Part shown: in pieces, positions 6,921 through 42,375 of the stretch
How the letters are laid out: each line of letters starts with the position of its first letter
Numbering within the stretch: the first letter of the stretch is position 1
From: a bacterium
Lineage (GTDB): Bacteria > Patescibacteriota > Minisyncoccia > CAIUEV01
DNA length: 42,568 nt
Assembly (NCBI GenBank): GCA_021779255.1
Contig: JAJYBC010000003.1
Location: 1 to 42,568 of the forward strand
Direction: 5' to 3'
Notes under the pieces: generated by a model
Database searches by the model: none
What the model was told of the DNA's origin: nothing
The model's input: the letters and a program-made list of their open reading frames with translations, nothing else
Translations under genes and position numbers: made by a program

Positions 6921-9106
6921 AATGATACTTTTTTTATAATTTTTAGTAATTCCCTAGATGCTTTTTCAACATCATGTCTTTCTAGGACCTTTTTAGCAGC
7001 ATTACCCCCTAATTTTTGAACGATATTTTTGTTTTGAGCAAGAAAAATTATTTTTTCAGCTACTTTCTCTACGTCAAGATATGGTATTACAAACCCACAA
7101 TCTTGTCCAACAAATTCAGGCATTCCTCCAGCAAGATCAAAACAAATAATGGGTTTTTTAAATAAAGCCGCCTGAAGACAAACAAGTGGGTAAGGATCTT
7201 CTCTAGAAGAAAGCAAAAATACATCTATCAAATAAAAATAATCAACCTTGTACTCAACAAAAAATATTTTATTTTTTAATTTCATCTTTTTTATGTCCTG
7301 TAAAACCCTTTCGAACTCTGCGTTATCGGTTCCTCCAATCCAAAGAAAAACAATAGGTAAATCAGATTTTTGTTTTACTAAATACGCAATTTGAGGATAA
7401 AGATCTAACCCCTTACGCCATTCAAGCGTTCCAGAAGCACCAACAACGAAAGCATTCTTTGGTATATCGAGGTCTCTTTCTAGACTGTCTCTACTACAAA
7501 AATTCTGGTTCTTTAAAAATTCGGATGTAGGTATATAGTCATGAACCAAAGCTATTTTGTCCTTAGCTATTTTATGATTATTTCTAAGATTTTCCACAAC
7601 AGATTGTGAGCTACCGATATAAAGATCCACAAGTTTTGACACTCTCGTGAACATTGTTTTGTCGCAAAAATAATTTATAGTGTTCGCTAACTCGTGTATA
7701 TAGTTAATTACTGGTAAATCTAAAAATTTTTTTATTTCCAGTATTGTTTTGCAACTTGCGACAGAATTTGCAAAAATTAAATCAAAATTTTGCTTAAGTA
7801 ATAACTTTATAAGATAATTTTTACCAACTACTTTTCTTAAACCGAGATACTTTATCAAATAATAGATTGGTCTAGGATAAATTGAATTCTGCTTATTTAT
7901 TAAATGCATATCTTTCATACAATAAGTTGGTGCTATATCTTCAAACTCATTTTTAATTTCTCCACCATCTTGAAGTAAAATTGAGAATTTTATATTCGTA
8001 TTTGCTTTCAGCCAACGTAAAAAATATAAAAGTACAATAGGTGCACCCGACTTTGAGGCATCGTGGCTAATAAAAAGAATTTTTCTTGATTGGTTAAAAT
8101 TTTCTTGTTTTACAAATATATTTTTTATTTTTAGAAATTTATCCCTAATTCTCCAAAAAATAGACAACTTCATTCTTCTAATTTCTTTATTTTTGTCTTT
8201 CAAATTTTTATCGAGGTTAGCAATCTCTTTGTTTTTTAAATGAATAACTTCTTTCAAATTTTTATCGAGGTTAGCAATCTCTTTGTTTTTTAAATGAATA
8301 ACTTCTTTCAAATTTTTATCGAGGTTAGCAATCTCTTTGTTTTTTAAATGAATAACTTCTTTCAAATTTTTATCGAGGTTAGCAATCTCTTTGTTTTTTA
8401 AATGAAGAGCATCCAACTCAATATTCAATTGATAATTTTTTCCATCTTCACTTAAAAAAGCGTATTTTCTTTGCATTTCGGATTCGCCTTTAAGTAAATT
8501 TTCATATTTTTTATTGTCCAACAAAATAACGCCCAGTCCAAAAGAATGATGGAACTCGACAGATTTATATTTCTTTTTTAACTCTTCCCAAAATTTATAA
8601 ACCCCAAAATCGTTTTCACTAACAAAAACATCATGGAACATAATTACTCCATCTTTTTTAACTTTTGGCAACCAACTTTCAAAATCGTGTTTAACGGCTT
8701 CATAGGTGTGAAGGCCATCAATATGAAGCAGATCGATTGATTGATCGGCAAAATCCGTCAAAGCTTTGTCGAAAGTTTTTCGGACTAAATTGATTTTTAA
8801 ATCCGGATAATATTTTTGTTGAATTTTTTTTACTCCTTCAAAAACTTCTTCGCCATAAAAACCAGCGTGTTTTTCGCCCTGCCAAGTGTCGACAGCAGAA
8901 ATTTCCGAGTTTATTTCTCCGTCCTTGACCGCTTGAGCAAAAGACCAAAGGGAAGTGCCCTTGTGAGTGCCAAGTTCAACAATAACTTCGGGCTTAAAAT
9001 TCCGCACAAAGTCATAAGCAAAATTCTTATGACCTGACCATGGCCAGCCAGTGTCGGCAAAGATTTCTTCGTATTCAAATTTTGGATCGTGGTATTGAAA
9101 AGACAT
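6917..9106 (-). CDS. Methyltransferase (Methyltransf_24-like) - coiled coil - GT4 glycosyltransferase fusion
   Basis: VELGTHKGTS, IDLLHIDGLHTYEAV and FHD in the N-terminal part; central 18-aa repeats; C-terminal SHDASKSGAP, RKGLD and SREDPYPLVCLQA. Confidence 0.85.
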   Translation of the reverse strand: MSFQYHDPKFEYEEIFADTGWPWSGHKNFAYDFVRNFKPEVIVELGTHKGTSLWSFAQAVKDGEINSEISAVDTWQGEKHAGFYGEEVFEGVKKIQQKYYPDLKINLVRKTFDKALTDFADQSIDLLHIDGLHTYEAVKHDFESWLPKVKKDGVIMFHDVFVSENDFGVYKFWEELKKKYKSVEFHHSFGLGVILLDNKKYENLLKGESEMQRKYAFLSEDGKNYQLNIELDALHLKNKEIANLDKNLKEVIHLKNKEIANLDKNLKEVIHLKNKEIANLDKNLKEVIHLKNKEIANLDKNLKDKNKEIRRMKLSIFWRIRDKFLKIKNIFVKQENFNQSRKILFISHDASKSGAPIVLLYFLRWLKANTNIKFSILLQDGGEIKNEFEDIAPTYCMKDMHLINKQNSIYPRPIYYLIKYLGLRKVVGKNYLIKLLLKQNFDLIFANSVASCKTILEIKKFLDLPVINYIHELANTINYFCDKTMFTRVSKLVDLYIGSSQSVVENLRNNHKIAKDKIALVHDYIPTSEFLKNQNFCSRDSLERDLDIPKNAFVVGASGTLEWRKGLDLYPQIAYLVKQKSDLPIVFLWIGGTDNAEFERVLQDIKKMKLKNKIFFVEYKVDYFYLIDVFLLSSREDPYPLVCLQAALFKKPIICFDLAGGMPEFVGQDCGFVIPYLDVEKVAEKIIFLAQNKNIVQKLGGNAAKKVLERHDVEKASRELLKIIKKVSL
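8196..8406. repeat. Perfect 54-bp tandem repeat, about 3.9 copies, encoding (HLKNKEIANLDKNLKEVI)n
   Basis: CTTTCAAATTTTTATCGAGG recurs at 8197, 8251, 8305 and 8359. Confidence 0.97.
9014..9106. repeat. 93-bp direct repeat, copy 1 (5' end of the methyltransferase-GT gene)
   Basis: 88/93 identical to 10558-10650 by manual alignment. Confidence 0.95.
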
Positions 9107-9123: not shown

Positions 9124-10545
9124 TTAATTTGAAATCTCCCAATAACCGCCCTTGTCGGGGCCAATGCGTTTTAGAAGGTTTTTTTGCTTGAGTTTTTCAA
9201 TATTGTTCCTAATATTTTTTTCATTTATTCCAATTTTCTCGCTCAATTTCCTCTGGGTTATCAGCGGATTTTTTCTTATTTGCTCAATAATTTTTTTTTG
9301 ACTCGTTGATAATTTTTCTAGGTCTTTTTCTAGGTCTTTTTCTAGGTCTTTTTCTAGGTCTTTTTCTAGGTCTTTTTCTAGGTCTTTTTCTAGGACACTG
9401 TGAACAATCACATCAAAACCGCTTGAATTTTCATTTATTTCCGGTTCCGGTAATCCGTATTCTTTGATTTGGTCAATTGCTCTTTTAACGCCACTTCCGT
9501 ATCTTTCAATCAAACCGCAATCACGAAAAATTTCGGCAACAGATTTGTTTCTAGGAAAAGATTTTTTATTACCTCTTTTTATATCTTCCATCGTTAATTC
9601 TTGAGGAATTTCTCCAACATTCCAAAAGATGATTTTATCAGGATAAATTTTAAATTGCGAATGAGTGCCTTCTCTGTAATCTCGATGAACAACTGCATTT
9701 ATGATAATTTCTCGCAAAGCTTCAATCGGATATTGCCAACGCTCCTCTCTTCTGGGATTACCGGTGAAAATATATTCCTTCAGAATATAGCTTTTAATAA
9801 AGTCTAGAACCTCTTCGACTTCCGTGACCAAGTCATTTCTTATCACTTTACTCTTTTTGATAATTGTATCCGTTTGAAATAGTCCAATTTGAATGTCAGT
9901 TTGACGAAGAGGATTTTTTGAAAAAAGAAGTAAACTGGCAAAAGTAGGATATTCCTTGCCTTTTTCCTCGACAATTAAAGAATATTTTCGTAAAAAACTT
10001 AAGTTATCCCCCAATTTTGTTTCTAGATTTTCTTCAATCAAATTTTTTATTTTGAATATTTTCTCTTGGTCAAGATCGTTCAATTTAGAATCTTTATCGG
10101 GATAAAAATCCCAACTAGAATTTTTTGTTTTTAAATATATATCAGCAACTTCCTGCAAAGATAAAATATGATTACTATTATTTTTTCTTATAAAATAACG
10201 ATTTTTAAAAGAAACTGGTTTTAAAGGAAACTCCATAATTTCCAAAATCGCTATTTTTCTATTATTTAAGTTGGATATTTCAATTTCTACATTTAGTCTC
10301 GGATAGGTTTTATTTTTTATTTCATTCAACCATTTTTGGACGCTTTCTCTGCTTATTTTTATACCAATTATTTTTCCCTTATTATTTACTCCCAAAATAA
10401 TTTTTCCGCCTTTACGATTAGCAAAAGCCACCAGTGTTTCAATCACTTCGTCACAAAAACTTTCCTTAAATTCTATATTATAGCCCTCACCTTGGCTTAT
10501 TAAGAATAACAGTTCTTTTTTCAATTCCTCGTCTATTTTTTTCAT
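9124..10545 (-). CDS. Schlafen/AlbA_2 domain - HATPase_c_4 - winged HTH protein (RecG C-terminal-like family)
   Basis: GEGYNIEFKES..VAFANRKGG (AlbA_2), ALREIIINAVVHRDY, PRN..AEIF..GLIERYGSG, C-terminal wHTH ending GPDKGGYWEI. Confidence 0.85.
   Translation of the reverse strand: MKKIDEELKKELLFLISQGEGYNIEFKESFCDEVIETLVAFANRKGGKIILGVNNKGKIIGIKISRESVQKWLNEIKNKTYPRLNVEIEISNLNNRKIAILEIMEFPLKPVSFKNRYFIRKNNSNHILSLQEVADIYLKTKNSSWDFYPDKDSKLNDLDQEKIFKIKNLIEENLETKLGDNLSFLRKYSLIVEEKGKEYPTFASLLLFSKNPLRQTDIQIGLFQTDTIIKKSKVIRNDLVTEVEEVLDFIKSYILKEYIFTGNPRREERWQYPIEALREIIINAVVHRDYREGTHSQFKIYPDKIIFWNVGEIPQELTMEDIKRGNKKSFPRNKSVAEIFRDCGLIERYGSGVKRAIDQIKEYGLPEPEINENSSGFDVIVHSVLEKDLEKDLEKDLEKDLEKDLEKDLEKLSTSQKKIIEQIRKNPLITQRKLSEKIGINEKNIRNNIEKLKQKNLLKRIGPDKGGYWEISN
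9313..9394. repeat. 12-bp tandem repeat TTTTTCTAGGTC, about 6.8 copies, encoding (LEKD)n
   Basis: Read directly from the sequence. Confidence 0.97.
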
Positions 10546-10881: not shown

Positions 10882-12237
10882 TTACCAGTGAAAATTCAAC
10901 TCGATCATCCCTTGTCGTTTAGATGTAGAGGCGATACGAAAAATTTTGGAACGATCAAGAAAATCAATGGTGTTTAATTCAGTACCCCTAAAAATACCCG
11001 CTTTGATATAGTAAGAATTGGTTTGTAAGGGATTTTTGGAATAGTTTATTTGAAAATACTTTTGCTTTAAAATTTTGGCCACCTCAATTTTATCAATGAA
11101 AGTATTCGTGCCGAAAATATAGTTATTTTCCTGAGTGAAAAGAGCAATGCCGAAATTCAAAATTTTGGCTGGTTTATTCTGTTTAAAATAGACTCTGACC
11201 GAGAGATCCTCCCCCGTTTTAAAAATATTTTTCACTTTGCCATCTTTGTCCAGAAATTCGACTTTGGTGATTTGGGCAATTTTCTTGGCTTGTCGGGGCA
11301 GGTCGCGTTGAGGTTGGGGCAGGTCGTGTTGAGGTTGGGGCAGGTCGTGTTGAGGTTGGGGCAGGTCGTGTTGAGGTTGGGGCAGGTCGTGTTGAGGTTG
11401 GGGCAGGTCGCGACCTGCCCTTACGGACGCCGCTTCGGCCTCTTTCTCGGCTTTTAATCGCAATCTTCTTTCTTCGTTAAATAATCTTTTCTCCTCGTCG
11501 CTCATGTTCTGATAGATATATTTATTGCCTACTTTTTCCGGGTCGCCAATCATAACGACTTTACCGGAACGCAGAAGCATGGCTCGATCACAGTAGCGTT
11601 GAACGGTGGCGATATCGTGCGTAACCAGAATAACCGTCTTGCCGGCGTCTTTGTACTTATTAAATTCTTCCATACATTTGGCTTGGAAATTGCTGTCTCC
11701 GACGGCCAGAACTTCGTCCATGAGGAGTATATCGCGATTAGCATGGATAGCCACGGAAAAAGCCAGTCTAACCTGCATACCGGAAGAATAATTTTTGACT
11801 TTTTGATCGATAAAACGTTTTAATTCGGAAAAAGAAACGATGTCATCAAATTTAGCGTCGATTTGTTTTTTGGTCAAACCTAAAACCGAGGCGTTAAGAT
11901 AGATATTATCACGACCGGAAAGTTCCGGATTGAAGCCGATGCCCAATTCCAAAAAAGGCGAGATTAAGCCGTCAACTTTTATTTTACCCGTATCGGGCGT
12001 ATAAATATTGGCTAGGATTTTGAGTAGCGTTGACTTGCCGGAACCGTTCCGGCCGATAATGCCAAAAAATTAGCCCTTTTTAATTTCAAAGGAAACATCG
12101 TTCAGCGCTTTGAATTTTTCATAACCCTTGTGGCCTCGAAAGGCACCAACAAAAGCCCCCCTGAGAGTTGAAACCTTTTCCTTGGGAATTTTGAAAGTCT
12201 TGGAAATATTTTGCACCGCAATAGCAATTTTGGACAT
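10882..12237 (-). pseudogene. wzt: Wzt/TagH-type polysaccharide ABC transporter ATPase with Wzt_C domain, interrupted by an in-frame TAA at codon 56
   Basis: Continuous frame MSKIAIAVQNISKTF...ALNDVSFEIKKG*FFGIIGRNGSGKSTLLK; YSSGM signature, LLMDEVLAVGD, VTHD; stop at 12070-12072. Confidence 0.85.
11292..11424. repeat. REP family B palindrome (11397-11424) preceded by five 21-bp tandem units, each holding one 14-bp arm; in frame, encodes (DLPQPQH)n
   Basis: Units GTTGGGGCAGGTCG+TGTTGAG at 11292 (variant), 11313, 11334, 11355 and 11376, then GTTGGGGCAGGTCG|CGACCTGCCCTTAC. Confidence 0.93.
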
Positions 12238-14029: not shown

Positions 14030-16609
14030 TTATTTAATACTCATATCGCTTTCGGCGGGAGCCGAGGAAGTGGCATTGCCCGATCCACTTTGGATTCTAA
14101 CTAAAATTTCTTGTTCTACTTCGGCTCGAGGACGTCCATAAGTTTGGCGAGAAAATTCTCTGACAGCCATAGCCGCAGTTGAGCTACCGGTGTCCAAAGG
14201 TAAACTTTTAAGACTGAAGGGTAAAGTGGCCTGACCGCTAACAATTATTTTAAGATAAGCATTAAAATTATCCAAATTCATCAAATCATAAGAGTTAAAA
14301 ACCGGCTCATACTGCTTGGCTACCATCTCAGCATCCTCCGGACCTACTCTGAAAGAAGCCATTGAGCCAACATTGCCAAAAACGGCATCACGAATTTTTT
14401 CGTCAAGTTGTTTTAGAAATTGATGAGCGATAACCAAATTTAAGCGATATTTACGCGCCTCGGACAAGATAGAAACAATCGAATTGGTGGTAAAATTATG
14501 AAACTCATCAATATAGAGGTAAAAATCTTTGCGTTCCTCTTCTGGCATATCAACTCGGCCCATAGCCGCAATCAAAATTTTACCGACCATAACCATACCA
14601 AGCAAATAGGCATTAAGCTCGCCAATCGTGCCTTTGCTGAGATTCATTAACACAATTTTCTGACCGTCCATAATTTCTCGCAGATTAAAAGAAGAGTGTT
14701 GTTGGGCAATAATCGGACGCATTACGTCGTTAGCGATAAAAGAAGTAAGTTTGCTGGTAATATAAGGCACCATATTGGCCAAGGCGGCCTCGCCACCCGC
14801 CTTCTCCGCTTCTTTAGTCCAGAAATTAACTACAATGGGGTCGGCACAATTTTTAAGCTTCATTTGGCGAAATTCGGGGTCTGAGAGCACTCGGGAAATT
14901 TCCAGCAGAGTGGAACCCGATTCGGGATGCGCCATTACCAGAAGCATAGCATTACGCATATACTGCTCAAACATTGGCCCGCCCACTTGGCGCATATCGT
15001 ACAATTTGTCAAAAATATCAATCATCTCGTTGATGACGAAAGTTTTCTGCTCGGGACGGTTATACTCCAACAAATTTAACCCCATTGGGCGTTCCGTATC
15101 GCCCGGATCAAACAAAATAACATCTTGAACTCTATTTTCCGGAATAAAAGTTAATATTTTATTGACTAACTCACCATGAGGATCAATTACACAAACGCCT
15201 TCGCCCGCTTCAATATCCTGTTTGATTAGACCGGCTAAAAAAGTTGATTTTCCGGTGCCAGTTTGACCAATCGTATAAAGATGCCGGCGTCGATCATCAC
15301 GGCTAATTTTAACGACCGTTTCTTGATCGCGAAAAATATTTTTCCCTAAATTTAAACCTTCTAAGGGCAAATTAGTAGGGCAGGGAGCTTGACGCGACTT
15401 GGACAAAAGAATACGCGGAGCGGCTTTTTGGACATTAATACCGAAGTGAAAGAGGCTGGACAACTCTTCGGTACAAAGAAGGGAATTTCTTTTGGGGCCA
15501 AAAACACGAAAGGTATAATCAAAAATCAAATCTTTAATTTTTTTGACTTCGATATTTTTAAAGCGATTGCCCTCAGGACTTTCAAACTGAATAAAAGCGT
15601 TGGCCATATCGGAAACGATAGCCTTAGCTCTTTCTTCGGTGGGGGACGAAGCTACAAGCCTGATACTCACAGCGAAAGAATTTTTTTTCGCTTTATTCTC
15701 AATGCTGTCTATAATTTTTTCTTCGCCGGAAGTTAGAATATGAGGCCCTTTACCGTTATCTAGCTGGTTTTTTTCGTTAACGGCGGATCCACCACCCAGA
15801 CTGTGCCAAAAATCTTTAAACATTTTCTTGGCTGGTTGACTAATTTTTTCTTTGGCTTGATCGAAAGTTTTGCCTTGTTTCATTTCGCGCGCAATTTCAC
15901 TCGCCAAAGATTTATAATCGGAAGCAAAAGGTCTAACCATAATTTGAATACTGGCGCCTTCTTTTTTAGGATCCAATTTGGTTAAAGAATTCGTTAGATT
16001 ATTCAAGGGATCGCTTTCTAAATCACGATAAGTTTTAAAAGGTAAATACGGCTCTTTGTCCAGTTTTAGATAAGCGCCCGCCACGTGGCCTTTGGGCGTA
16101 AAAATGTTATAACCACGGACTTGCTCCACCGAGACAAAAGAAAAAAAACTGTGAATTTGTTTTTCCACAAAATTAGCCTGATCACTAGGCACAGCCATAT
16201 AGAAAGCAATTCCTTCTTGATTGAAAGGCACCGCCATTTCCAACGTAAAATAGGGAAAACGCGCCCATCTTTGCCAAAAATTTTGTGGTCGAATACCGTT
16301 TAGCGTGGAAAAGAACTGCTCCATCACAGCAATTTTTTCTCGCGCCAAATCCAACGAATCGCTTCTGGCCTGAATTGAAGACGAATCGGCTGAATCTCCC
16401 ATCACCGGCACAGCAATCCGTAAGAGAGTAAAACGAAAGGAATAAGCTTTTGCTTTCTGGTAGCGTAAAAGCCAAAAAATAAGAAAAATTGCCGAAATAA
16501 AGATTAAGATAAGCAAAAAAAGAATAACCAAATCATAGTTGATATTTGACCAAAAATCCAACGTGACGCTGTTTATTTGACTATCGGTTTGAGTATTGGG
16601 AGTAAGCAT
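14030..16609 (-). CDS. VirD4/TraG/TrwB-like (HerA/FtsK superfamily) ATPase with N-terminal TM anchor
   Basis: RRRHLYTIGQTGTGKS, VIDPHG, LYIDEFHNF, LSEARKYRL and AHQ. Confidence 0.88.
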   Translation of the reverse strand: MLTPNTQTDSQINSVTLDFWSNINYDLVILFLLILIFISAIFLIFWLLRYQKAKAYSFRFTLLRIAVPVMGDSADSSSIQARSDSLDLAREKIAVMEQFFSTLNGIRPQNFWQRWARFPYFTLEMAVPFNQEGIAFYMAVPSDQANFVEKQIHSFFSFVSVEQVRGYNIFTPKGHVAGAYLKLDKEPYLPFKTYRDLESDPLNNLTNSLTKLDPKKEGASIQIMVRPFASDYKSLASEIAREMKQGKTFDQAKEKISQPAKKMFKDFWHSLGGGSAVNEKNQLDNGKGPHILTSGEEKIIDSIENKAKKNSFAVSIRLVASSPTEERAKAIVSDMANAFIQFESPEGNRFKNIEVKKIKDLIFDYTFRVFGPKRNSLLCTEELSSLFHFGINVQKAAPRILLSKSRQAPCPTNLPLEGLNLGKNIFRDQETVVKISRDDRRRHLYTIGQTGTGKSTFLAGLIKQDIEAGEGVCVIDPHGELVNKILTFIPENRVQDVILFDPGDTERPMGLNLLEYNRPEQKTFVINEMIDIFDKLYDMRQVGGPMFEQYMRNAMLLVMAHPESGSTLLEISRVLSDPEFRQMKLKNCADPIVVNFWTKEAEKAGGEAALANMVPYITSKLTSFIANDVMRPIIAQQHSSFNLREIMDGQKIVLMNLSKGTIGELNAYLLGMVMVGKILIAAMGRVDMPEEERKDFYLYIDEFHNFTTNSIVSILSEARKYRLNLVIAHQFLKQLDEKIRDAVFGNVGSMASFRVGPEDAEMVAKQYEPVFNSYDLMNLDNFNAYLKIIVSGQATLPFSLKSLPLDTGSSTAAMAVREFSRQTYGRPRAEVEQEILVRIQSGSGNATSSAPAESDMSIK

Positions 16610-16624
16610 TTATATTAATTTACT

Positions 16625-18679
16625 CTATTTATTTTTCAGCTCCGCCAACATCTTGCGCAGGTCTTCTTTATATTTCATTTTTTGCTCCTCAGAAATTTTA
16701 CTCACGTATTTGGAAGGTGGCGCCGGAGGAGCTTTAGGTGTGCTGTGAGTTCTTAAATTGGTATTTGGTTCAGATTTAGAATCGGTACTTTCGTTAGTTT
16801 TTCTTTGATTTTCTAACGCTCTTTGACGTCTAATTTCTCTTAAACAGTCTTTGCAATAGACTCCTCGATCGGCCTCGGGCTTGAAGGGAATTTTGGTTTT
16901 TTTACCACAACGATCGCAAGTTGCTTCGTGCCAAATAGTCGGCTTTTTCTCTCCTAGGTCTATGACTGGCGATTCTTGTAATTCAACCTTCTTTTCTTCC
17001 TTTTCATTTTCTGCTTTTTTTTTGTTCTTGTCCTCTGTTGTCTCTTCTACTGTCTCTGACGCTATTTCTTCGGCTAATTCTTCTTTAGCATTAGCTGCTG
17101 ATAGCGAATCCTCCATCTGTTGCTTTATTTCCGCTTCGATACCATCGCTTTCTTGGTCGCTAAAACCGACAATTTGTGAAGGCGACATAAATTTATCAGA
17201 AGAAGAATATTCGGATAAATTTTCATTTTTTTCATCCGAAAGAGGGTAATTTGTTGTTGAAACAACGTGAGAGGATTCCGTCCCTATTTTTTCGGACGAA
17301 TAATTATTCACTCCTGCAGAGAGATAGGATGATTCCGCCTCCACGGATTCGCCCATTTTCTCCTGTTTCATCTCTTCTTCGGTTAAACCAAAATTACGCG
17401 ACATCCATTTGGAAATTTTTTCCTCTACTTCTTTACGTGGATGACTATAGCGTTCACGCGAAACTTGAATCGCTTTTTCAACGTAAGAGACGACAGGGGC
17501 CTCAAAAGGAGGTAGGGATTTGGCGCTAAAAGCGTCGCCCGAAACTCCGTCAATCATCAATTTTAAATAAATCTGATACTTTGGTAAGTTGATAATATCG
17601 TTCATCATCACGGCCGGTTCAAATTCTTTTTCCAAGAATTCCGCATCCGCAGCGCCTACTCGAAAAGTTATTAAGGTACCAACGTTACCAAAAACCGCAT
17701 CTCGTACCTGTTCGTCTAACTGAGCAATATACTGATGGGCCACCGTTAAGTTTAGCCGATATTTTCGCGCCTCCGACAAAATACTAGCGAAAGATTCAGT
17801 CGCAAAATTTTGAAATTCATCAACGTAAAGATAAAAATCTCTTCGCGTCCCTTCGGCAATGTCTACTCGTTCCATAGCGGCTAAGTAAAGTCTGGTTACC
17901 ACCATACCGCCCAACAAAGCCATTGATTCTTCACCGATTTTGCCTTTGGATAGATTAACAATCAAAATTTTGCCTTCATCCATAATTTGTCGCATATTGA
18001 TTGTCGATTTGGTCTGACCAACAATGTGTCTGACAATTGGTGTCGAGATGAATTGACCAACTTTATTTTGAATAGCCGCCGTGGCTTCTCGGGCAAAACG
18101 TTGATCCCATTTGCCAAATTCTTCCAACCAAAAAGAACGGACAATAGGATCTTTGACTTTTTCGATCACCTGACTACGAAATTCTTTCTCGCTCATCATC
18201 CGGTTAATACCCAGCATGGTGCTACCCGGATAATCCAGTAAAGCTAAAATGGTGTTATTGAGGATATATTCCATTCGTGGACTCCAAACATCCGGCCAAA
18301 TTTTTTTAAAAACGCCCATCATTCCCGAAGCGATCAAATGTTTATGATCTTCGTCCACCGCTTCCAAGATGTTAAAAGCAACCGGATATTCTAAATCGGC
18401 CGGATTAAAATAAACAACATCGTTAACACGATCTTTGGGAATAAAATGCATAATTTCCTCGGCTGTATCGCCATGAGGATCGACAAAAGCTACCCCTCGC
18501 CCTTTTTTAATATCTTGAATAACCAGATTGCGTAACATAGCTGATTTTCCCATACCGGTTTTGCCGATCAAATACATATGACGTCGGCGATCATCCGGCT
18601 TGATCCCGAAAGACTTTTCTTCATTGCGATAGTCCGTCTTGGCAAAAATAGTGACATCTTCCTCCTTGATGCTAGCCAT
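16625..18679 (-). CDS. VirD4/TraG-like ATPase with acidic linker and C-terminal CxxC-x17-CxxC domain
   Basis: RRRHMYLIGKTGMGKS, VDPHGD and LYVDEFQNF; CDRC-x17-CKDC. Confidence 0.88.
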   Translation of the reverse strand: MASIKEEDVTIFAKTDYRNEEKSFGIKPDDRRRHMYLIGKTGMGKSAMLRNLVIQDIKKGRGVAFVDPHGDTAEEIMHFIPKDRVNDVVYFNPADLEYPVAFNILEAVDEDHKHLIASGMMGVFKKIWPDVWSPRMEYILNNTILALLDYPGSTMLGINRMMSEKEFRSQVIEKVKDPIVRSFWLEEFGKWDQRFAREATAAIQNKVGQFISTPIVRHIVGQTKSTINMRQIMDEGKILIVNLSKGKIGEESMALLGGMVVTRLYLAAMERVDIAEGTRRDFYLYVDEFQNFATESFASILSEARKYRLNLTVAHQYIAQLDEQVRDAVFGNVGTLITFRVGAADAEFLEKEFEPAVMMNDIINLPKYQIYLKLMIDGVSGDAFSAKSLPPFEAPVVSYVEKAIQVSRERYSHPRKEVEEKISKWMSRNFGLTEEEMKQEKMGESVEAESSYLSAGVNNYSSEKIGTESSHVVSTTNYPLSDEKNENLSEYSSSDKFMSPSQIVGFSDQESDGIEAEIKQQMEDSLSAANAKEELAEEIASETVEETTEDKNKKKAENEKEEKKVELQESPVIDLGEKKPTIWHEATCDRCGKKTKIPFKPEADRGVYCKDCLREIRRQRALENQRKTNESTDSKSEPNTNLRTHSTPKAPPAPPSKYVSKISEEQKMKYKEDLRKMLAELKNK

Positions 18680-18707
18680 GAATAAGTTTGTAAAGTTTAT
18701 AAACTAT

Positions 18708-18796
18708 TGGTACCGAAGGTGGGAATCGAACCCACACGAGGGGTGAACCTCAAGGGATTTTAAGTCCCTCGCGTCTGCCAATTCCGCCACTCCGGC
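18708..18796 (-). tRNA. tRNA-Leu (anticodon TAA), CCA encoded
   Basis: GCCGGAGTGGCGGAATTGGCAGACGCG-AGGGA-CTTAAAA-TCCCT-long variable arm-GTGGGTTCGATTCCCAC-CTTCGGT-ACCA. Confidence 0.97.
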
Positions 18797-18803
18797 TTTG
18801 TGT

Positions 18804-19136
18804 TTACTCTTTTAGTCTCTGTTTGATAAATTTTTTATACTCAACTAAATCTTCCCGACAGGTCTTCCAAATTATTTTCTTATCGATGTTGAAATATTCA
18901 TGAATTAAAAAATTTCTCATACCGATTATCACCCTAAAATCCATTTCAGAATTTTCTTTCTTAAAGTCTCGACTTAATTTATTGGTAGCTTCACCTATAA
19001 CAGCTAATTGTCTAATAATTGCATCGTAGACAATCTCGTCATCGTAAAATTTAGCATACTTTTTACCTTTCGAGTATTTTTCCACCTGCTTAATTGCCTC
19101 TAGGATGTGCTCTAAATAAAAATTATCGTTTTTCAT
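18804..19136 (-). CDS. HEPN/DUF86 (HepT-like) ribonuclease toxin
   Basis: RX4H motif RNFLIH followed by EY, IGEA motif; overlaps the upstream MNT gene. Confidence 0.9.
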   Translation of the reverse strand: MKNDNFYLEHILEAIKQVEKYSKGKKYAKFYDDEIVYDAIIRQLAVIGEATNKLSRDFKKENSEMDFRVIIGMRNFLIHEYFNIDKKIIWKTCREDLVEYKKFIKQRLKE

Positions 19137-19431
19137 AGATTTTGCAAGCTTTAGATAAAACTTCTTCTTTTATCCCTTTCTTTAGTCCCTCCTTAGTAAC
19201 TAAATCCACTTCTTTATCTAAAAACTTTTTCAAACTTAATTTGATTCTAACCAAGTCGAAAAGACCTATTTTAGCACTTTTAGTAAATTCAACTAAAATA
19301 TCCAAATCGCTTCCTTTGCTCGGTTTCCCATGAGCATAAGAACCGAACAGAGAAACTTTTTTAAAACTTTTTTGATAAGGACTAATCTCTACAGCCTCTT
19401 TAATTTTAGCCTTTAAATCCTTGTTGGTCAT
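19123..19431 (-). CDS. Minimal nucleotidyltransferase (MntA-like) antitoxin
   Basis: LFGSYAHGKPSKGSDLD (GSX10DXD) and VDLVT. Confidence 0.9.
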   Translation of the reverse strand: MTNKDLKAKIKEAVEISPYQKSFKKVSLFGSYAHGKPSKGSDLDILVEFTKSAKIGLFDLVRIKLSLKKFLDKEVDLVTKEGLKKGIKEEVLSKACKIYEKR

Positions 19432-19490
19432 CTTTGTTGTTAAAAGCTTACTCCGATAGATAATACCTCGTTTTTACGAAATGTAAAGTC

Positions 19491-21491
19491 TTAGTCGATC
19501 TGAATTTCTGGGGCGCCTTCACAGGCGGGAACCTTGTAAAGTTCTTTTTCTTTAATCAATTCCTTGGGCGGACTGCTCTTGCAAGGCGCTTTGCTGGTCA
19601 CGATTTCTTTAACAATGTTTTCTTCCGCTTGTTTTAGTTGTAAATATTTCGGTTGACCACTGCAAAAACCGTAGTGGTAATCTCCTTGGTTCATATAGCC
19701 ATTCTTAATAGGATAATCTGTCCAAGCTTTAAAATTGTACTCTAAAATAGAGGTATTTAAATCTCCTCTCGGTTGATTCTCGGTCCAATAACGCGCTAAA
19801 TGTCCTCTAACTTGACCGCTGGTCTGACCGGAGCCCGATTTATACGTTACTTCCGGTCTGTTTTTCTTACCTTCGTCAAATTCCTTCATGTTCTTATGGC
19901 TCTGAGTTGTTTCCAAACTACCTATCTGATTAGCACAGGCAATCGCTTCGATCTGACCTCTAGAAAATCCCCCCATTTTATTCAAACAAAACTGGCCGGA
20001 ATGTGTTCCCTCGTGAACTAAGAAATGGGCAATATTAATAATTTTATCTTTATGCGTCACATATATACTGCCACAACCGTCGCAAAGCCCTCCTTCCGGA
20101 TTATCACCAATATGTGCCACGAAACGAAAAATCATTTCGTACCGAAATTGATCGCGGTTGGCAATTCTTTTTAGAGCTTTGAGGATGGCTTGACGAGAAC
20201 CATCACCGTTATTCCAGTCACCAGGGTCTAAATCAGATGTTCCTCCTTGATCTTTATTAATCTTATCCATTCCATCGGATATTTTACCAAAATCATCCGT
20301 TTTACTACCAGTTGGCGCGTTGCTATTAGACATCGATTTCTGCCAACTGTTAGGATCGACCTGTGTCTTATCCGTCGATTGGTTATTATCAGTTTTACTA
20401 TTATCGGTCGCCGTTTTTTCCGTGCGATCGCCGCTGTTGGTCGCATTACTTCTATCATTTACTTCAGCCACCAAAACAGCATTCTCCTTGACTTTAGCCG
20501 TTAGACCCGACAAAGTTTGCTCAATAAAAGTATTTTTGGGATTTTGCGCCTCCAAACTATCCACTGTCTGAGTTAAAGCGGCGATCGCCTGATCGATTTT
20601 TTGCGGGTTGCTTTTGAGATCTGAAAAATTTTGAACGTCTGACAAACCCATTTTAGCTAAATCACCCGATTTCCGAAGAGAATCAAAAGTCAAATTGCCA
20701 ATATAATCGGTTAAATTATTTAAAATTTGCTTTTTCTGACTACTAGTTAGGGTTTGATTATTTTGATCCAAAAGAGACAGATTACTATAGCTAGGGTCGC
20801 CAGCTAGAATACCCAGATAAGTCCCTAAATTATCCGAAAGGGCAGTCGTATCTATTTTTAACTGACCATTCGAAGAATAACCGGCCAAAAAAGGAACTAA
20901 AACTGTTTCTTCTTTATTAACTGAATTTAATTTCGCTGGAACCGAAAAAACAATTTCCTGATTTTCCGGCAAAGAACTTTTGAGTTGAGTTAAAAAAGAA
21001 TCAGCCGAAAAATTACTCGTGATAATACCCGCTTTTTCTTGGCTATTAACAAGTGAAGAAAGCTGGGAGTAAGTTTTCAGTGAAGATAAATAGTCGGCTT
21101 TTGGTAAATCACTGCCCACTTTTTGAGTTCCTAAATTAACATTTTCACTCTCATCAACGCATTGAAATTGCCACCAAGAACCGGCATTTTGATAACCTAC
21201 CGCCGAAATAGCTCCTTTGAGAATTAACCAACCGGCCAGAATTAATGCAAAACCGATAAAAGCTTTTTTGGCTGTTCCCTTGGCTTTTTCCATAAAACTT
21301 TTCCGGCCAACCGAAAAAATATAGGCAAAGCCGGCTAAAATTAGAAAGGCGATGGCCACCGAAAAGCCAATCAGGATAATATAATTATAAATATTAACGG
21401 TGGTGGTCAGCAAACTACAAACACCGCAATCACCGCCTGAGCAAGCCACCAGACTGTCGCTCGCCGCTTGCACTGTTTGAATTAAATTCAT
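19491..21491 (-). CDS. Pilin-like (2-TM, VirB2/TrbC-like) N-terminus fused to a large extracellular region with an HExxH metallopeptidase-like domain
   Basis: C-x4-C-x2-C then two TM helices (AG..YI.S.G) and SWWQFQC; HEGTH at 20001-20015; paralog of 22259-24949. Confidence 0.65.
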   Translation of the reverse strand: MNLIQTVQAASDSLVACSGGDCGVCSLLTTTVNIYNYIILIGFSVAIAFLILAGFAYIFSVGRKSFMEKAKGTAKKAFIGFALILAGWLILKGAISAVGYQNAGSWWQFQCVDESENVNLGTQKVGSDLPKADYLSSLKTYSQLSSLVNSQEKAGIITSNFSADSFLTQLKSSLPENQEIVFSVPAKLNSVNKEETVLVPFLAGYSSNGQLKIDTTALSDNLGTYLGILAGDPSYSNLSLLDQNNQTLTSSQKKQILNNLTDYIGNLTFDSLRKSGDLAKMGLSDVQNFSDLKSNPQKIDQAIAALTQTVDSLEAQNPKNTFIEQTLSGLTAKVKENAVLVAEVNDRSNATNSGDRTEKTATDNSKTDNNQSTDKTQVDPNSWQKSMSNSNAPTGSKTDDFGKISDGMDKINKDQGGTSDLDPGDWNNGDGSRQAILKALKRIANRDQFRYEMIFRFVAHIGDNPEGGLCDGCGSIYVTHKDKIINIAHFLVHEGTHSGQFCLNKMGGFSRGQIEAIACANQIGSLETTQSHKNMKEFDEGKKNRPEVTYKSGSGQTSGQVRGHLARYWTENQPRGDLNTSILEYNFKAWTDYPIKNGYMNQGDYHYGFCSGQPKYLQLKQAEENIVKEIVTSKAPCKSSPPKELIKEKELYKVPACEGAPEIQID

Positions 21492-24949: not shown

Positions 24950-24976
24950 TATTTTTTTATTTATATGAACGATTTC

Positions 24977-25004
24977 GTAGGGGCGTATTGCAATACGCCC
25001 CTAC
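24977..25004. repeat. REP family A, perfect 28-bp palindrome GTAGGGGCGTATTGCAATACGCCCCTAC
   Basis: Identical to the copy inside the RAYT gene; 10 bp past the stop of 25015-25656. Confidence 0.95.
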
Positions 25005-25014
25005 GATGGGTACT

Positions 25015-28360: not shown

Positions 28361-28388
28361 GTAACGACAGGTCGCGACCTGTTGTTAC
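28361..28388. repeat. REP family B, 28-bp palindrome GTAACGACAGGTCG|CGACCTGTTGTTAC (unamplified)
   Basis: GTA..TAC ends, GGTCGCGACC centre, one mismatch. Confidence 0.85.
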
Positions 28389-32706: not shown

Positions 32707-32734
32707 GCAGGGGCGTATTGCAATACGCCCCTAC
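32707..32734. repeat. REP family A copy (1 mismatch), 1 bp after the ftsW stop
   Basis: GCAGGGGCGTATTGCAATACGCCCCTAC. Confidence 0.93.
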
Positions 32735-33353: not shown

Positions 33354-33379
33354 GTAGGGGCGTGTTGCAAAACGCCCAT
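33354..33379. repeat. REP family A degenerate copy, 1 bp after the lemA stop
   Basis: GTAGGGGCGTGTTGCAAAACGCCCAT. Confidence 0.85.
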
Positions 33380-33416
33380 GTGTCCCGTAAAATAATTTAA
33401 CCTTTCACGAAAAATT

Positions 33417-36390: not shown

Positions 36391-36418
36391 GCGGGGGCGT
36401 ATTGCAATACGCCCATCT
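36391..36418. repeat. REP family A degenerate copy flanking the RAYT 3' end
   Basis: GCGGGGGCGTATTGCAATACGCCCAT; a further decayed GTAGG.. copy may start at 36343. Confidence 0.85.
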
Positions 36419-36442
36419 GGGCGGGGTTATCCCGCCCTTTTT
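36419..36442 (+). terminator. GC hairpin plus T5 overlapping the RAYT stop
   Basis: GGGCGGG-GTTAT-CCCGCCC-TTTTT. Confidence 0.55.
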
Positions 36443-37014
36443 GATTGTTTGAAATTATTCCGATCATTTTCCCAATTGGTGGGGTTGCTTTTAATATATT
36501 CTTGGATACGTTCCAAATCAAATTTATCTTGAACAATATGTTCGTAATAATTACGTTGAAAAATTTTTCGACGATCAAAATGTTCGGTTTTTTCGTATAT
36601 TTGTGTCTCATTAATTTTTTTGGTTACGGTTGATTTGTATCCACGGACAATGGAACCCAAATTATTTTTGGGTGATTGAAACATCGGAGAAAATTGGGTA
36701 ATAATCGGTGTGGGTACATCCCGTAGGGGCGTATTGCAATACGCCCCTACAATGCGAATTATTACGTGAATATGATTCGGCATAATTATAAAATCACCCA
36801 ACTTGACATTTGTTCGTATTTTTGGTGTTTTTTGTAATTCGTCGTATGCAATTTTTCCAAATTTATTCAAATACATCTCCCCATTTTTGATTCGACCAAA
36901 CAAGCACTGCATTTGATAGGTGCAGATGGTGACAAAATACATTCCATTTTGGGAGTAATCATAATCTTTCAATCGTAAAGAATTGCGATAATATTTACCG
37001 GAAATAAATGTCAT
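36427..37014 (-). mobile_element. REP-associated tyrosine transposase (RAYT; Y1 HUH, IS200/IS605 superfamily)
   Basis: R.SLRL..YDYS..G.YFVTICT, HUH motif MPNHIH, FQRNYYEHIV, catalytic Tyr in YIKSNP; cognate palindromes nearby and inside. Confidence 0.92.
36723..36750. repeat. REP family A perfect copy inside the RAYT ORF, encoding VGAYCNTPL
   Basis: GTAGGGGCGTATTGCAATACGCCCCTAC. Confidence 0.97.
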
Positions 37015-39321: not shown

Positions 39322-39382
39322 AAAAAAATTTATCGGATAACCAACGCATTCTAACACAAAAGATTAAAATAATAAAGAAGGA

Positions 39383-39399
39383 AGGGGCGAGCCGCCCCT
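39383..39399 (-). terminator. Hairpin AGGGGCG-3 nt-CGCCCCT after the signal peptidase stop
   Basis: 7-bp GC stem followed by a pyrimidine/T-rich tract on the minus strand. Confidence 0.5.
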
Positions 39400-39402
39400 C
39401 TC

Positions 39403-39981
39403 CTATCTCTCCGCTTTCCCTAGGATTTCCTTTTTGTCGATCAAACCAAAGCGAGTGGAATCGATAGATCCTTCAACTAAATTGCCCAGAACCAGATAGG
39501 CATTTGGTGGTATTTTCCCTTGATAATCTTTAATATAGAGAGCCAACATTTCTTTTTCTTTTTCTCCCAGTTCATACGTTTTTTGTTCACTGTTAACAAC
39601 AATTTGACCATCAATCTCTATTTGCCATTTTTCTTTGTCATTCTTCAAATCTAATTTATCCCCCGGTATGCCTTTGATTGTTTTTAAAAGAGGATTGTCA
39701 TTACCAGCATAGGAAAGGGCTATTAGATCTCCTCTCTGAACTTTATGACAATTATAATAACCTTTGAGAATTTTAATGTTAGCATTTTCTTCCACTAGTC
39801 CCGTCATGGATTTGCCTCTCACCGTACGAGTTTCCGTTTCAATCGGACAAGAAGACGATTGGTCCACACTTTTTTCAGCTACATTTTTATTAGCAAAAAA
39901 ATAAAAATAACCCGCCAAAATTATCGCGATCAATAAACAAATTATTCCTGATAACACTGCCTGATTTGATTTTAATTTCAT
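39403..39981 (-). CDS. lepB: Signal peptidase I (S26)
   Basis: TM anchor, GKSM (Ser), LLKTIKGIPGD (Lys) and VLGN..S.DS..FG. Confidence 0.8.
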   Translation of the reverse strand: MKLKSNQAVLSGIICLLIAIILAGYFYFFANKNVAEKSVDQSSSCPIETETRTVRGKSMTGLVEENANIKILKGYYNCHKVQRGDLIALSYAGNDNPLLKTIKGIPGDKLDLKNDKEKWQIEIDGQIVVNSEQKTYELGEKEKEMLALYIKDYQGKIPPNAYLVLGNLVEGSIDSTRFGLIDKKEILGKAER

Positions 39982-40020
39982 TATCGATTTTATTTTTTAA
40001 TTACTTGCGCGGACAGATTG

Positions 40021-40090
40021 ATACGGGCGGGTCGGTACGGGCGGGTCGGTACGGGCGGGTCGGTACGGGCGGGTCGCGACCCGCCCCTTC
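40021..40090. repeat. REP family B with one 14-bp arm repeated four times head-to-tail
   Basis: (A/G)TACGGGCGGGTCG at 40021, 40035, 40049 and 40063, then CGACCCGCCCCTTC. Confidence 0.95.
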
Positions 40091-40098
40091 TTACATTT

Positions 40099-42375
40099 TT
40101 ATATCCCGCATTCCACATTCAAACAATGATCGCCATCTTTGGTATGAAACAAGACCTGGCCACATTTAGGACATTTTTTATCCATTACCGGTTTGCCTTT
40201 GGCAATATATTTGCACTTAGGATATTGATTACAAGCATAAAAAGGACCACGACGTGAACGTTTTTCTACTAATTCGCCTTTACCGCATTCCGGACATTTG
40301 ATACCCAACTTTTTTTCAAACTTTTTAATAAATTTACATTTAGGATAATTACTGCAACCCATAAAACGACCGAAACGGCTTTGGCGTAAAACTAATGGTG
40401 ATCCGCATTCCGGACATTTTTCTTGACCAGCTTCCGCTTGCAATTTTTTTTCTTCCTCGTTAGCTTCGGTGTATTTACATTCCGGATAGCCGGAGCAAGC
40501 ATAAAAATTACCAAATTTACCAAATTTTTCAACCATCACCTTACCGCATTCCGGACAATTACGATCTAAAATTTTTTGAAATTTAGCTACTTCTTTTGTT
40601 TTTCGATCCAAATTTTCTTTAAAAGGATCATAAAATTCTCGAATAACCGGTATCCATTTTTTCTTGCCTTGAGCGATTTCATCCAAATCTTTTTCCATTT
40701 TAGCCGTAAAAGGGATTTCAACAATATTAGGGAAATGTTCCACTAAAATATCGTTGACAACGCAGCCTATCTCTTCGGGGAATAAACCTCCTCTTTCGTC
40801 TTTGGAAACATAGCTTCTTTCTTGAACGGTACTAATCGTTGGAGCGTAAGTGGATGGTCGACCGATACCATTTTCTTCCAAAGTCTTAATGAGTGTTGCT
40901 TCGGTATAGCGACCGGGCGGTTCGGTAAATTTTTGTTCTCCCAAAATTTTTTCTTTTTTGACTGTTTCTTGTTGAACTAGCTCGGGTAACAATTCCTCTT
41001 TTAAAACTTCCTTACCGAAAATTCGAAAAAAACCGTCAAAAGCGATTTGGGAACCACGCGATTGCAGCTCATAGAATCCTGCGGTAAAATTTACAATAGT
41101 GTTGTTAATCTCGGCATTGGCCATTTGAGAAGCAACCGTCCTTTCCCAAATCAAACGGTAAAGCCGGTACTGTTCTCCTGTCAAAGCCTGCTTAATTTTT
41201 TCCGGATCTTTTTCCACGTAAGTCGGTCTAATAGCCTCGTGAGCTTCCTGAGCTCCTTTGGCTTTCTGTCGAAAAAATCTTGGCTTATCCGGTAAATATT
41301 TTTGACCTAAATTTTGACTAACATATTTTTGAATAGAGCTCACCGCCAAAGAAGAAATATTCAGAGAATCCGTTCGCATATACGTTATTAATCCGACTCG
41401 TTTACCATCAACTTTTATACCTTCATAAAGTTGCTGCGCTACTCGCATAGTTCTTTTAGCCGGAAAACCAAAACGACGACCCGCCTCCTGTTGCAAAGTA
41501 CTGGTGCGAAAAGGCGGGGCAGGGGAACGAAGAGTTTTTTTCTGCTCGATATGACTCACTTTCATCTCCACTTGAGCCAAATCAGCGGTAATTATTTTAA
41601 TTTCTTCCTCTTTTTTTAAATCCAATCGAGCAATTTTTTTACCTTTAATCTTATTTAGCAAAGCAACATATCCTATTTCGGCCGTTTCCCGATTTAAATT
41701 TGCTACATCACCGGCTTTCTGGTTTTTAATGATTTCAACTTTAGTCAGAAAAGTTTTCTTATCTTCTTCTTTCTTTTTCTTATTCCAGACAACTCGAATT
41801 TTCCAATATTCTTCCGCCTTGAAATTTTCTCTTTCTCGTTCTCTTTCCACAATTAAACGAACTGCTACCGATTGAACTCGGCCGGCCGAAAGACCTTTTC
41901 GCACTTTTTTCCAAAGGAAAGGGGATAGTTGGTAGCCAACTAACCGATCGAGAATACGACGCGCTTGCTGAGCGTCAAAAAGATTTAAGTCAATCTCTCG
42001 AGGCTCGATTAAAGCTTTTTTGATGGCCGGTGGAGTAATTTCGTGAAAAGTAATCCTCTTGAAAATTAATTTTTTGTTTTTAGGAGCCAAAAGCTCTTTT
42101 AGATGGTATGCAATCGCTTCTCCTTCGCGGTCTTCATCGGTTGCCAGAATAATTTCTTGCGCTTTTTTGCTTTCTCTTTGGAGAATTCTAACATTTTTCG
42201 TCGCTTTAGGGGAAATAATATATTCCGGAGTAAAATCAGCCTTAACATCCACGCCTAAACGATCTTGAGGTAAATCACGCACATGGCCGAAAGAAGAAAG
42301 AACTTGATATTCTTTTTCTAGAAATCGACCGATGGTTCGCGCTTTAGTAGGGGATTCAACAATAACAAGACGCAT
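40099..42375 (-). CDS. topA: DNA topoisomerase I
   Basis: LVIVESPTKA, ATDEDREGEAI, SAGRVQS, ITYMRTD, QEAHEAIRPT and C-terminal C4 zinc ribbons. Confidence 0.98.
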   Translation of the reverse strand: MRLVIVESPTKARTIGRFLEKEYQVLSSFGHVRDLPQDRLGVDVKADFTPEYIISPKATKNVRILQRESKKAQEIILATDEDREGEAIAYHLKELLAPKNKKLIFKRITFHEITPPAIKKALIEPREIDLNLFDAQQARRILDRLVGYQLSPFLWKKVRKGLSAGRVQSVAVRLIVERERERENFKAEEYWKIRVVWNKKKKEEDKKTFLTKVEIIKNQKAGDVANLNRETAEIGYVALLNKIKGKKIARLDLKKEEEIKIITADLAQVEMKVSHIEQKKTLRSPAPPFRTSTLQQEAGRRFGFPAKRTMRVAQQLYEGIKVDGKRVGLITYMRTDSLNISSLAVSSIQKYVSQNLGQKYLPDKPRFFRQKAKGAQEAHEAIRPTYVEKDPEKIKQALTGEQYRLYRLIWERTVASQMANAEINNTIVNFTAGFYELQSRGSQIAFDGFFRIFGKEVLKEELLPELVQQETVKKEKILGEQKFTEPPGRYTEATLIKTLEENGIGRPSTYAPTISTVQERSYVSKDERGGLFPEEIGCVVNDILVEHFPNIVEIPFTAKMEKDLDEIAQGKKKWIPVIREFYDPFKENLDRKTKEVAKFQKILDRNCPECGKVMVEKFGKFGNFYACSGYPECKYTEANEEEKKLQAEAGQEKCPECGSPLVLRQSRFGRFMGCSNYPKCKFIKKFEKKLGIKCPECGKGELVEKRSRRGPFYACNQYPKCKYIAKGKPVMDKKCPKCGQVLFHTKDGDHCLNVECGI

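Follow-up and report, generated by a model that had tools for sequence, protein, structure and literature searches.

The tandem array downstream of topA in the stretch of DNA analysed here (hereafter the window, 42,568 bp in length) is interpreted as a REP of which one arm has been reiterated, the extra arms having arisen through hairpin-anchored seeding and then slippage; we place the probability of this interpretation at about 0.55. The array comprises four 14-bp units arranged head-to-tail (copy number as assembled), to which a single opposite arm adjoins directly (Table 1). The first of these units opens with A and units 2-4 open with G. Tandem Repeats Finder delineated the interval 40022-40076 with a period of 14, 3.9 copies, 100% matches and a score of 110, and the periodicity ends precisely at the dyad centre of the palindrome, TCG|CGA. 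The last unit and the opposite arm together form the core REP palindrome, which is perfect over 20 nt: the sequence CGACCCGCCC complements the arm's inner 10 nt without a mismatch. Over its full length, the opposite arm agrees with the unit at 12 of 14 positions, its outer four bases reading CTTC where GTAC would be expected, and hence the feet of this REP are GTAC on the plus strand and GAAG on the minus strand, each one base removed from GTAG. When the window was searched for the arm 14-mer with up to three mismatches, 14 matches were found against 0.40 expected, and the core GGTCGCGACC, with up to one mismatch, was matched four times against 0.24 expected; neither count was reached in any of 100 shuffles. 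The description in the first-pass annotation of a REP arm present four times and followed by one complementary arm was thus confirmed, apart from the first base of unit 1 and the incomplete (12/14) match of the opposite arm, and its view that the repeat unit is the REP arm itself is likewise supported.

Table 1. Location of the arrays, palindromes and genes of the window
Feature	Position	Strand	Remarks
Wzt-like ABC transporter ATPase gene, holding the sister array	10882-12237	-	In-frame TAA at 12070-12072
Sister array, 21-bp units x 5.5, then opposite arm	11292-11424	+	Unit is arm GGGGCAGGTCG plus 10-11-nt spacer
Family-A REP copies	24975-25006, 32709-32732, 33354-33381, 36395-36414, 36723-36750		GTAG...CTAC double foot; no reiterated arms
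Third palindrome with GGTCGCGACC core	28361-28388		Between the PTAC gene and the start of ileS; no extra arms
RAYT (TnpA_REP) gene, 195 aa	36427-37014	-	Motifs NHIH and YIKSNP; 3 kb from the topA array
Terminator-like hairpin after the S26 peptidase gene	~39382-39400	-	GC-rich stem of GGGCGGG/AGGGGCG type
Signal peptidase S26-like gene	39403-39981	-	Lies downstream of the array; co-oriented with topA
Tandem REP-arm units with GTAC foot	40021-40076	+	Unit 1, ATACGGGCGGGTCG, 40021-40034; units 2-4, GTACGGGCGGGTCG, 40035-40076
Core REP palindrome (last unit and opposite arm)	40063-40090		8-bp stem, CGCG apical loop
Single opposite arm	40077-40090	+	CGACCCGCCC at 40077-40086, then degenerate foot CTTC
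topA, type I DNA topoisomerase, 758 aa	40099-42375	-	Stop codon 8 nt from the REP

Since the window is one whole contig, the exact arm count rests on its assembly. The copy number, or even the array itself, could be an artefact of metagenome assembly, as the organism is uncultured, the window is a complete contig and assemblers can mis-count short perfect repeats. However, the array is, at 56 bp, shorter than typical reads, and the same architecture is present in many independent assemblies, including the isolate genomes of Aequorivita capsosiphonis (L026) and Flavobacterium stagni (L035), and we regard an artefact as highly improbable.

A second single-arm array, which had been proposed at 11292-11424, proved to be real. 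With this sister array, Tandem Repeats Finder returned a period of 21 and 5.5 copies at 98%, the unit being an arm together with a spacer, and the array lies in frame within the gene for a Wzt-like protein, encoding (DLPQPQH)n in the linker of that protein. The two arrays share one polarity. Read along the minus strand, the sense strand for the genes concerned, each shows a single 5' arm ahead of the repeated 3' arms. Palindromes with the GGTCGCGACC core number three in the 42.6-kb window and two of the three carry arrays that end at their centre. Extra arms are absent from all five family-A copies of the window, as the first-pass annotation had stated. The Wzt-like gene itself is interrupted by a TAA codon situated just before the Walker A region, at a position occupied by glutamate in the closest homologue; the frame of 451 codons is otherwise intact, and the gene is either a recent pseudogene or else affected by a sequencing error. 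Elsewhere in the window, positions 14030-21491 hold a type-IV-secretion-like cluster with two TrwB/VirD4-like ATPases and a T4SS pilin-domain protein, with a HepT/MNT toxin-antitoxin pair and a tRNA-Leu intervening; the stretch may be an integrated mobile region.

The presence of a RAYT gene in the window, also anticipated in the first-pass annotation, was supported by a match of its product to Pfam PF01797 (Y1_Tnp) at 33.3 bits against a cut-off of 23, and by 2342 homologues at E <= 1e-10, several of which are named RayT by their sources. The 'WQ' motif reads FQ in the window protein, a deviation. One family-A REP (36723-36750) is located in frame within this gene after the HuH motif, where it encodes GAYCNTPL, and a further copy (36395-36414) lies just downstream of the gene, so that the window RAYT is flanked by family-A REPs and not by REPs of the family found in the topA array. 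A GC-rich hairpin at 36419-36437, with a stem of the GGGCGGG/AGGGGCG type, overlaps the stop codon of the RAYT gene; on the plus strand, a T-run comes after this hairpin. Subclass 2.4 of these transposases was described as having 'double-foot' REPs and REPs placed in frame within the transposase gene (Quentin et al., 2018; PMC6006769) and, judged from sequence and by that description, the window RAYT is a member of subclass 2.4 (Bertels group 4). The palindrome of the topA array is, on the same kind of evidence, assigned to the TCGCGA-centred 'double-foot' REP class of group-4/subclass-2.4 RAYTs. As detailed below, this palindrome occurs beside and inside RAYT genes of other genomes (L067 and the regions matched by tblastn), and it is therefore taken to be a REP family of the window's RAYT class.

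To place the palindrome in other organisms, species-representative genomes were scanned with a degenerate pattern derived from the three window copies, and at least 121 loci were recovered in which GGGC(A/G)G arms and GTA(A/C) feet flank the core GGTCGCGACC; the window's own genome was not among these loci. Among the matches listed, the hosts are mostly Bacteroidota, together with Chloroflexota, Ignavibacteria, WOR-1, spirochaetes, Gammaproteobacteria and Patescibacteria, the last represented by Magasanikbacteria, Moraniibacteriota, Falkowbacteria, Saccharibacteria and Gracilibacteria. Positions 40060-40087 of the window are matched exactly, over 28 nt, in a locus of Patescibacteria (L109). 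A tblastn search with the window RAYT matched 14 of the at least 121 loci, corresponding to 12 regions in which a RAYT-like gene adjoins or encloses the palindrome. In one of these genomes (L067), the RAYT gene contains the palindrome in frame, and two further copies lie just downstream, each of the three with several copies of the opposite arm. A GTAG foot is present on at least one side at 40 of 146 core sites (26 GTAC/GTAG, 12 GTAA/GTAG and 2 GTAG/GTAG), frequencies that are biased because the search pattern demanded GTA[AC] on one side. At seven loci (L033, L034, L037, L081, L086, L088 and L093, from Saprospiraceae, Chitinophagales and Opimibacter), the 28-nt REP core sits inside a far longer perfect palindrome of at least 50 bp, with AT-rich flanks that are mutually inverted. 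A Bacteroidales contig (L040:1-2801 and L041) holds at least six copies of a repeat of a few hundred bp in which the REP occupies a fixed position, and a RAYT-like gene is present in that region. The arrangement resembles a larger, composite repeat that has the REP as its nucleus.

Reiteration of a single arm is not confined to the window. The survey covered the 143 unique core sites flanked on either side by 60 nt or more, those closer to the end of a locus being left out, and an arm copy was scored as 10 nt with at most two mismatches within 10-40 nt. A same-side direct copy of the arm was found at 23 of these sites, in 17 loci among the at least 121, compared to 2.80 +/- 1.79 with shuffled flanks (maximum of 10 in 200 shuffles), which upholds the earlier claim that the topA array is not a one-off. 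Copies of the opposite type were encountered at nine of the 143 sites, with 1.94 +/- 1.31 from shuffled flanks. In the reiterated unit, the arm and its foot are accompanied by 0-15 nt of flank, and the periods at the surveyed sites are 10-28 bp; among 42 outer units, the window arrays included, they lie between 14 and 30 bp, the commonest being 21 (11 units) and 15 (8 units). The bases following the arm in these 42 units are CG in 19, TG in 8, CA in 3 and others in 12, the last including the three GT of the topA array. CG represents the first two bases past the palindrome centre and, given that the loop is CGCG, the bases found after the arm place the inner breakpoint within the apical loop or at its 3' edge. 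The break exactly at the symmetry centre that the first-pass annotation had described thus holds for the topA array, and the relatives usually break 2 nt past the centre. The reiterated arm was the GTAC-footed one in 10 cases and the opposite one in two weak hits, a ratio affected by the pattern-biased choice of feet and from which no mechanistic conclusion is drawn; GTAC feet are often preceded by an overlapping GTAG (GTAGTAC). A single 15-bp junction is shared by five Bacteroidota genomes (L021, L022, L027, L060 and, with one base different, L050), and nested forms of the type arm-arm-arm'-arm' were found at L050 and in the RAYT proteins P0004 and P0068.

Arm repeats are also seen within the transposases. 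The insert could be delimited in 112 of the best 120 of the 2342 RAYT homologues and, with a four-residue word recurring within 4-20 residues as the criterion, short tandem repeats were detected in the in-frame REP insert of 24 of the 112, whole hairpins and arms being counted together. Repeats of an arm alone, of the family-A type, occur in P0026 (three left arms), P0015 (four right arms), P0004 and P0068. The proposal that single-arm amplification is a family-specific trait therefore does not stand: REPs of the family-A type undergo it in the RAYT genes of other organisms, and the trait belongs to the REP class rather than to family B alone.

Differences in copy number between relatives were observed at several sites. 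Alignment of the Wzt-like protein of the window with its 44 best homologues revealed that in the closest, P0122 (69% identity), the corresponding linker holds this same REP, with two copies of the right arm, compared to six in the window. The next, P0123, has a family-A-type REP and a left-arm doublet of the TCGCGA type, and the linkers of the remaining 42 of the 44 are lysine- and glutamate-rich or of other sequence, and without a REP. At an orthologous site in two Aequorivita species (L026:1480-1560 and L060:1480-1540), three REP arms are present and the middle arm is inverted between the two, giving arm-arm'-arm' in L026 and arm-arm-arm' in L060. The RAYT proteins P0113, P0118 and P0116 contain two, three and five copies, respectively, of one 16-residue unit in the insert that follows the HuH motif; these three proteins are closely similar and the copy number of the unit is their sole difference, which points to variation inside the transposase itself.

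According to the interpretation favoured here, such arrays would arise in two steps. A rare error of replication or repair that has one of its ends in the unpaired loop at the hairpin apex would first generate a second copy of the arm. Slipped-strand mispairing between the resulting direct repeats would then allow the array to grow or shrink and would leave its inner units identical. Plain slippage cannot create the initial duplication, a lone palindrome having each arm only once per strand, and the seeding event is the weak point of the interpretation. In the second step, ordinary slippage was probably responsible for the expansion. The window contains two further tandem arrays that involve no palindrome, one of 54 bp x 3.9 (8196-8406) and one of 12 bp x 6.8 (9313-9394), both with 100% matches, and these perfect arrays indicate that slipped-strand expansion is active in this genome; by the same token, the assertion in the first-pass annotation of a mechanism 'rather than generic slippage' went too far. 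The first of the two is coding and located in a methyltransferase-glycosyltransferase fusion, and the second gives (EKDL)n in a protein with Schlafen AlbA_2 and HATPase_c_4 domains; together with the two REP arrays, there are four arrays of 98-100% identity per 42.6 kb. Further observations count against the two-step interpretation: the topA array breaks at the centre and most of its relatives at +2; the feet in the window are GTAC and GAAG and not the canonical GTAG; and the window RAYT is flanked by REPs of family A and not of this family.

The non-palindromic arrays also raise the question of whether plain replication slippage in a repeat-prone genome could account for everything, the end of the array at the palindrome centre being then a coincidence or a by-product of GC-rich sequence. 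A comparison with other GC-rich hairpins in the same DNA would accommodate this, since arm copies at 23 of 128 REP sites did not differ significantly from those at 4 of only 41 control hairpins (Fisher p = 0.33); with the removal of two mis-sorted family-B variants having a GTGA centre, the control became 2 of 39 (p = 0.07, a small sample), and the control-hairpin arrays included one low-complexity and one partial case. Hence, arm reiteration may be a general effect at any GC-rich hairpin. However, slippage alone is strained by the recurrence of the architecture at 23 of 143 sites elsewhere where 2.8 were expected, by the excess of same-side over opposite-type copies (23 versus 9), and by the two of three window palindromes with this core whose arrays end at the centre. 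We thus consider it improbable as a full explanation.

A different source of the extra arms would be the RAYT itself. As a HuH nuclease, it would make one cut in the apical loop of the extruded hairpin and a second beyond the foot, both in single-stranded DNA, and rejoin the ends by strand transfer; in a variant of this proposal, half a REP or a whole one would be pasted into the loop of another REP, and the repeat unit would correspond to the stretch between two cleavage sites. TnpA_REP enzymes are known to cut and rejoin single-stranded REPs at dinucleotides chosen by the foot, and a GTAC foot redirected one such enzyme to GA and GT sites (PMC8266576). Many of the junctions, being GCG|T and GCG|A (e.g., GCG|TAC), fit this GA/GT rule, but the window junction TCG|GTAC and the arrays with GTTG feet do not, and the cleavage sites reported in the same source lie outside the hairpin and not in the loop. 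Also consistent with enzymatic action are the pattern of one breakpoint fixed in the single-stranded loop and another that varies in the flank, the junction shared by the five Bacteroidota genomes, and the existence of nested forms. The arrays may furthermore be enriched near RAYT genes, which accompany 4 of 14 array regions and 5 of 63 others (Fisher p = 0.052), although this enrichment is weak and the density of REPs is in any case highest beside RAYT genes. On balance, production of the extra arms by the RAYT appears unlikely, if less so than slippage by itself. A broader and somewhat more doubtful proposition is that subclass-2.4 RAYTs cut REP loops as well, that the half-REP is a unit capable of being duplicated or pasted, and that the arrays, the nested forms and the RAYT insert would be the footprints of this activity.

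The setting of the topA array bears on whether it serves a function. The distance from the topA stop codon (40099-40101, minus strand) to the start of the S26-like gene (39981, minus strand) is 117 nt, most of which is occupied by the element; the best named relatives of the window TopA, at 71% identity, are from Candidatus Moranbacteria, and TopA was seen on two contigs. The host is accordingly taken to be an uncultured bacterium of Patescibacteria type that has no close relatives in the protein collection searched. The minimal element is predicted to fold as DNA into an 8-bp stem with a CGCG loop at -10.1 kcal/mol. In the context of the array, the fold of lowest energy pairs the single arm with a distal unit and, as it represents only 0.3-5.7% of the ensemble, many pairings must be nearly equal, which bears out the earlier suggestion that alternative hairpins are possible. 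The fold energies of the array are no better than those of shuffled sequence (z of -0.93 for RNA, -1.14 and -0.23 for DNA, and also -0.64). A search of Rfam with positions 39850-40250 gave no matches at E up to 1, and the whole window gave only the tRNA-Leu. An intrinsic terminator after topA was considered and rejected, the minus-strand hairpin having arm repeats in the place of a U-tract. The window is AT-rich, with about 27-43% GC, and its GC skew tracked only gene orientation and did not provide the direction of replication.

With the array situated in an intercistronic spacer, 40-95 nt upstream of the S26 start codon, and with its capacity for alternative hairpins, it might be supposed to be a selected cis-element, either as direct repeats for the binding of a regulator or as an RNA switch or stabiliser between topA and the S26 gene. 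Both the Rfam result and the comparison of fold energies with shuffles speak against this, as do the lack of a U-tract terminator on the sense strand and the fact that the unit is an arm of a dispersed repeat family found also in unrelated contexts and within genes; such a role is therefore seen as very unlikely. The topA array probably has no dedicated function; in the transcript from topA to the S26 peptidase gene, or in single-stranded DNA, it makes available four near-equivalent hairpins where an ordinary REP has one.

These arrays bear on two standing questions, namely the means by which REPs multiply and the cellular role of RAYTs; the mechanisms of REP dissemination are described in the literature as poorly understood. 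A lopsided REP with its inner breakpoint in the hairpin loop amounts to a natural 'scar' that constrains the mechanism to one with a break or stall at the loop. Reiteration of arms also explains why the insert of subclass-2.4 RAYT proteins varies in length, as do host proteins, for instance in the linker of the Wzt-like protein. If seeding were dependent on RAYT, the arrays would provide the first in vivo footprint of that class of enzymes; if not, they would neatly illustrate repeat instability anchored at hairpins in streamlined genomes. Should RAYTs indeed cut REP loops, one could read directly from the arrays the sites and the manner of action of a domesticated HuH transposase in vivo.

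A number of known systems resemble the arrays in part. The 'peel and paste' transposition of the IS200/IS605 elements (PMC8266576, PMC6006769) likewise involves a HuH-Y1 enzyme, a hairpin with a guide tetranucleotide and the cutting and rejoining of single-stranded DNA. The arm unit differs from these elements in that it has no transposase gene inside, and the known cleavage sites are outside the hairpin; the involvement of an IS200/IS605-like enzyme in arm arrays is purely hypothetical. As in the sister array, an in-frame palindromic repeat is tolerated in proteins with the Rickettsia palindromic elements (cited in Di Nocera et al., 2013; PMC3733652), which belong to another sequence family and another host, and in connection with which the text of PMC3733652 consulted here makes no mention of arm-only arrays.

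Clusters of REPs and BIMEs also reiterate in tandem, some within genes (Di Nocera et al., 2013; PMC3733652). The unit in those clusters, as presented there, is a whole REP or a REP dimer, whereas that of the topA array is half a REP, which permits only one complete hairpin at a time. REPINs are, similarly, short REP-derived units, for which mobilisation by a single-copy RAYT has been proposed (Bertels and Rainey, 2011; PMC3116915). However, a REPIN is composed of two inverted REPs and the topA array of direct copies of an arm with one inverted arm. Classification of the topA array as a BIME or REPIN was accordingly rejected: its four direct arms and one inverted arm include no second complete palindrome.

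The closest parallel is found with the REPs of subclass 2.4 (Quentin et al., 2018; PMC6006769). These are GC-rich perfect palindromes with tetranucleotide feet on both sides, their copies occur beside or in frame within the RAYT gene and within other genes, and their hosts are Bacteroidota and scattered phyla. The legend of Fig. S6 of that study refers, moreover, to 'short repeated sequences' in the RAYT insertion domain. The feet of the topA-array REP are GTAC and GAAG as opposed to the GT[AG]G of the subclass-2.4 REPs and, in the parts of that publication that were available, the repeats are not described as single arms beside one opposite arm, nor as present in intergenic copies. Our searches of the literature, in which the supplement of PMC6006769 was represented by its legends, returned no account of single-arm reiteration as a recurrent form of REP. 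REPs, RAYTs, double-foot REPs, in-frame REP insertions and the tandem reiteration of whole REPs are thus already known (PMC6006769, PMC3733652), as are the 'short repeated sequences' of the subclass-2.4 insert (PMC6006769); what is apparently new is the recurrent, lopsided (arm)n+arm' form of this known class of REP.
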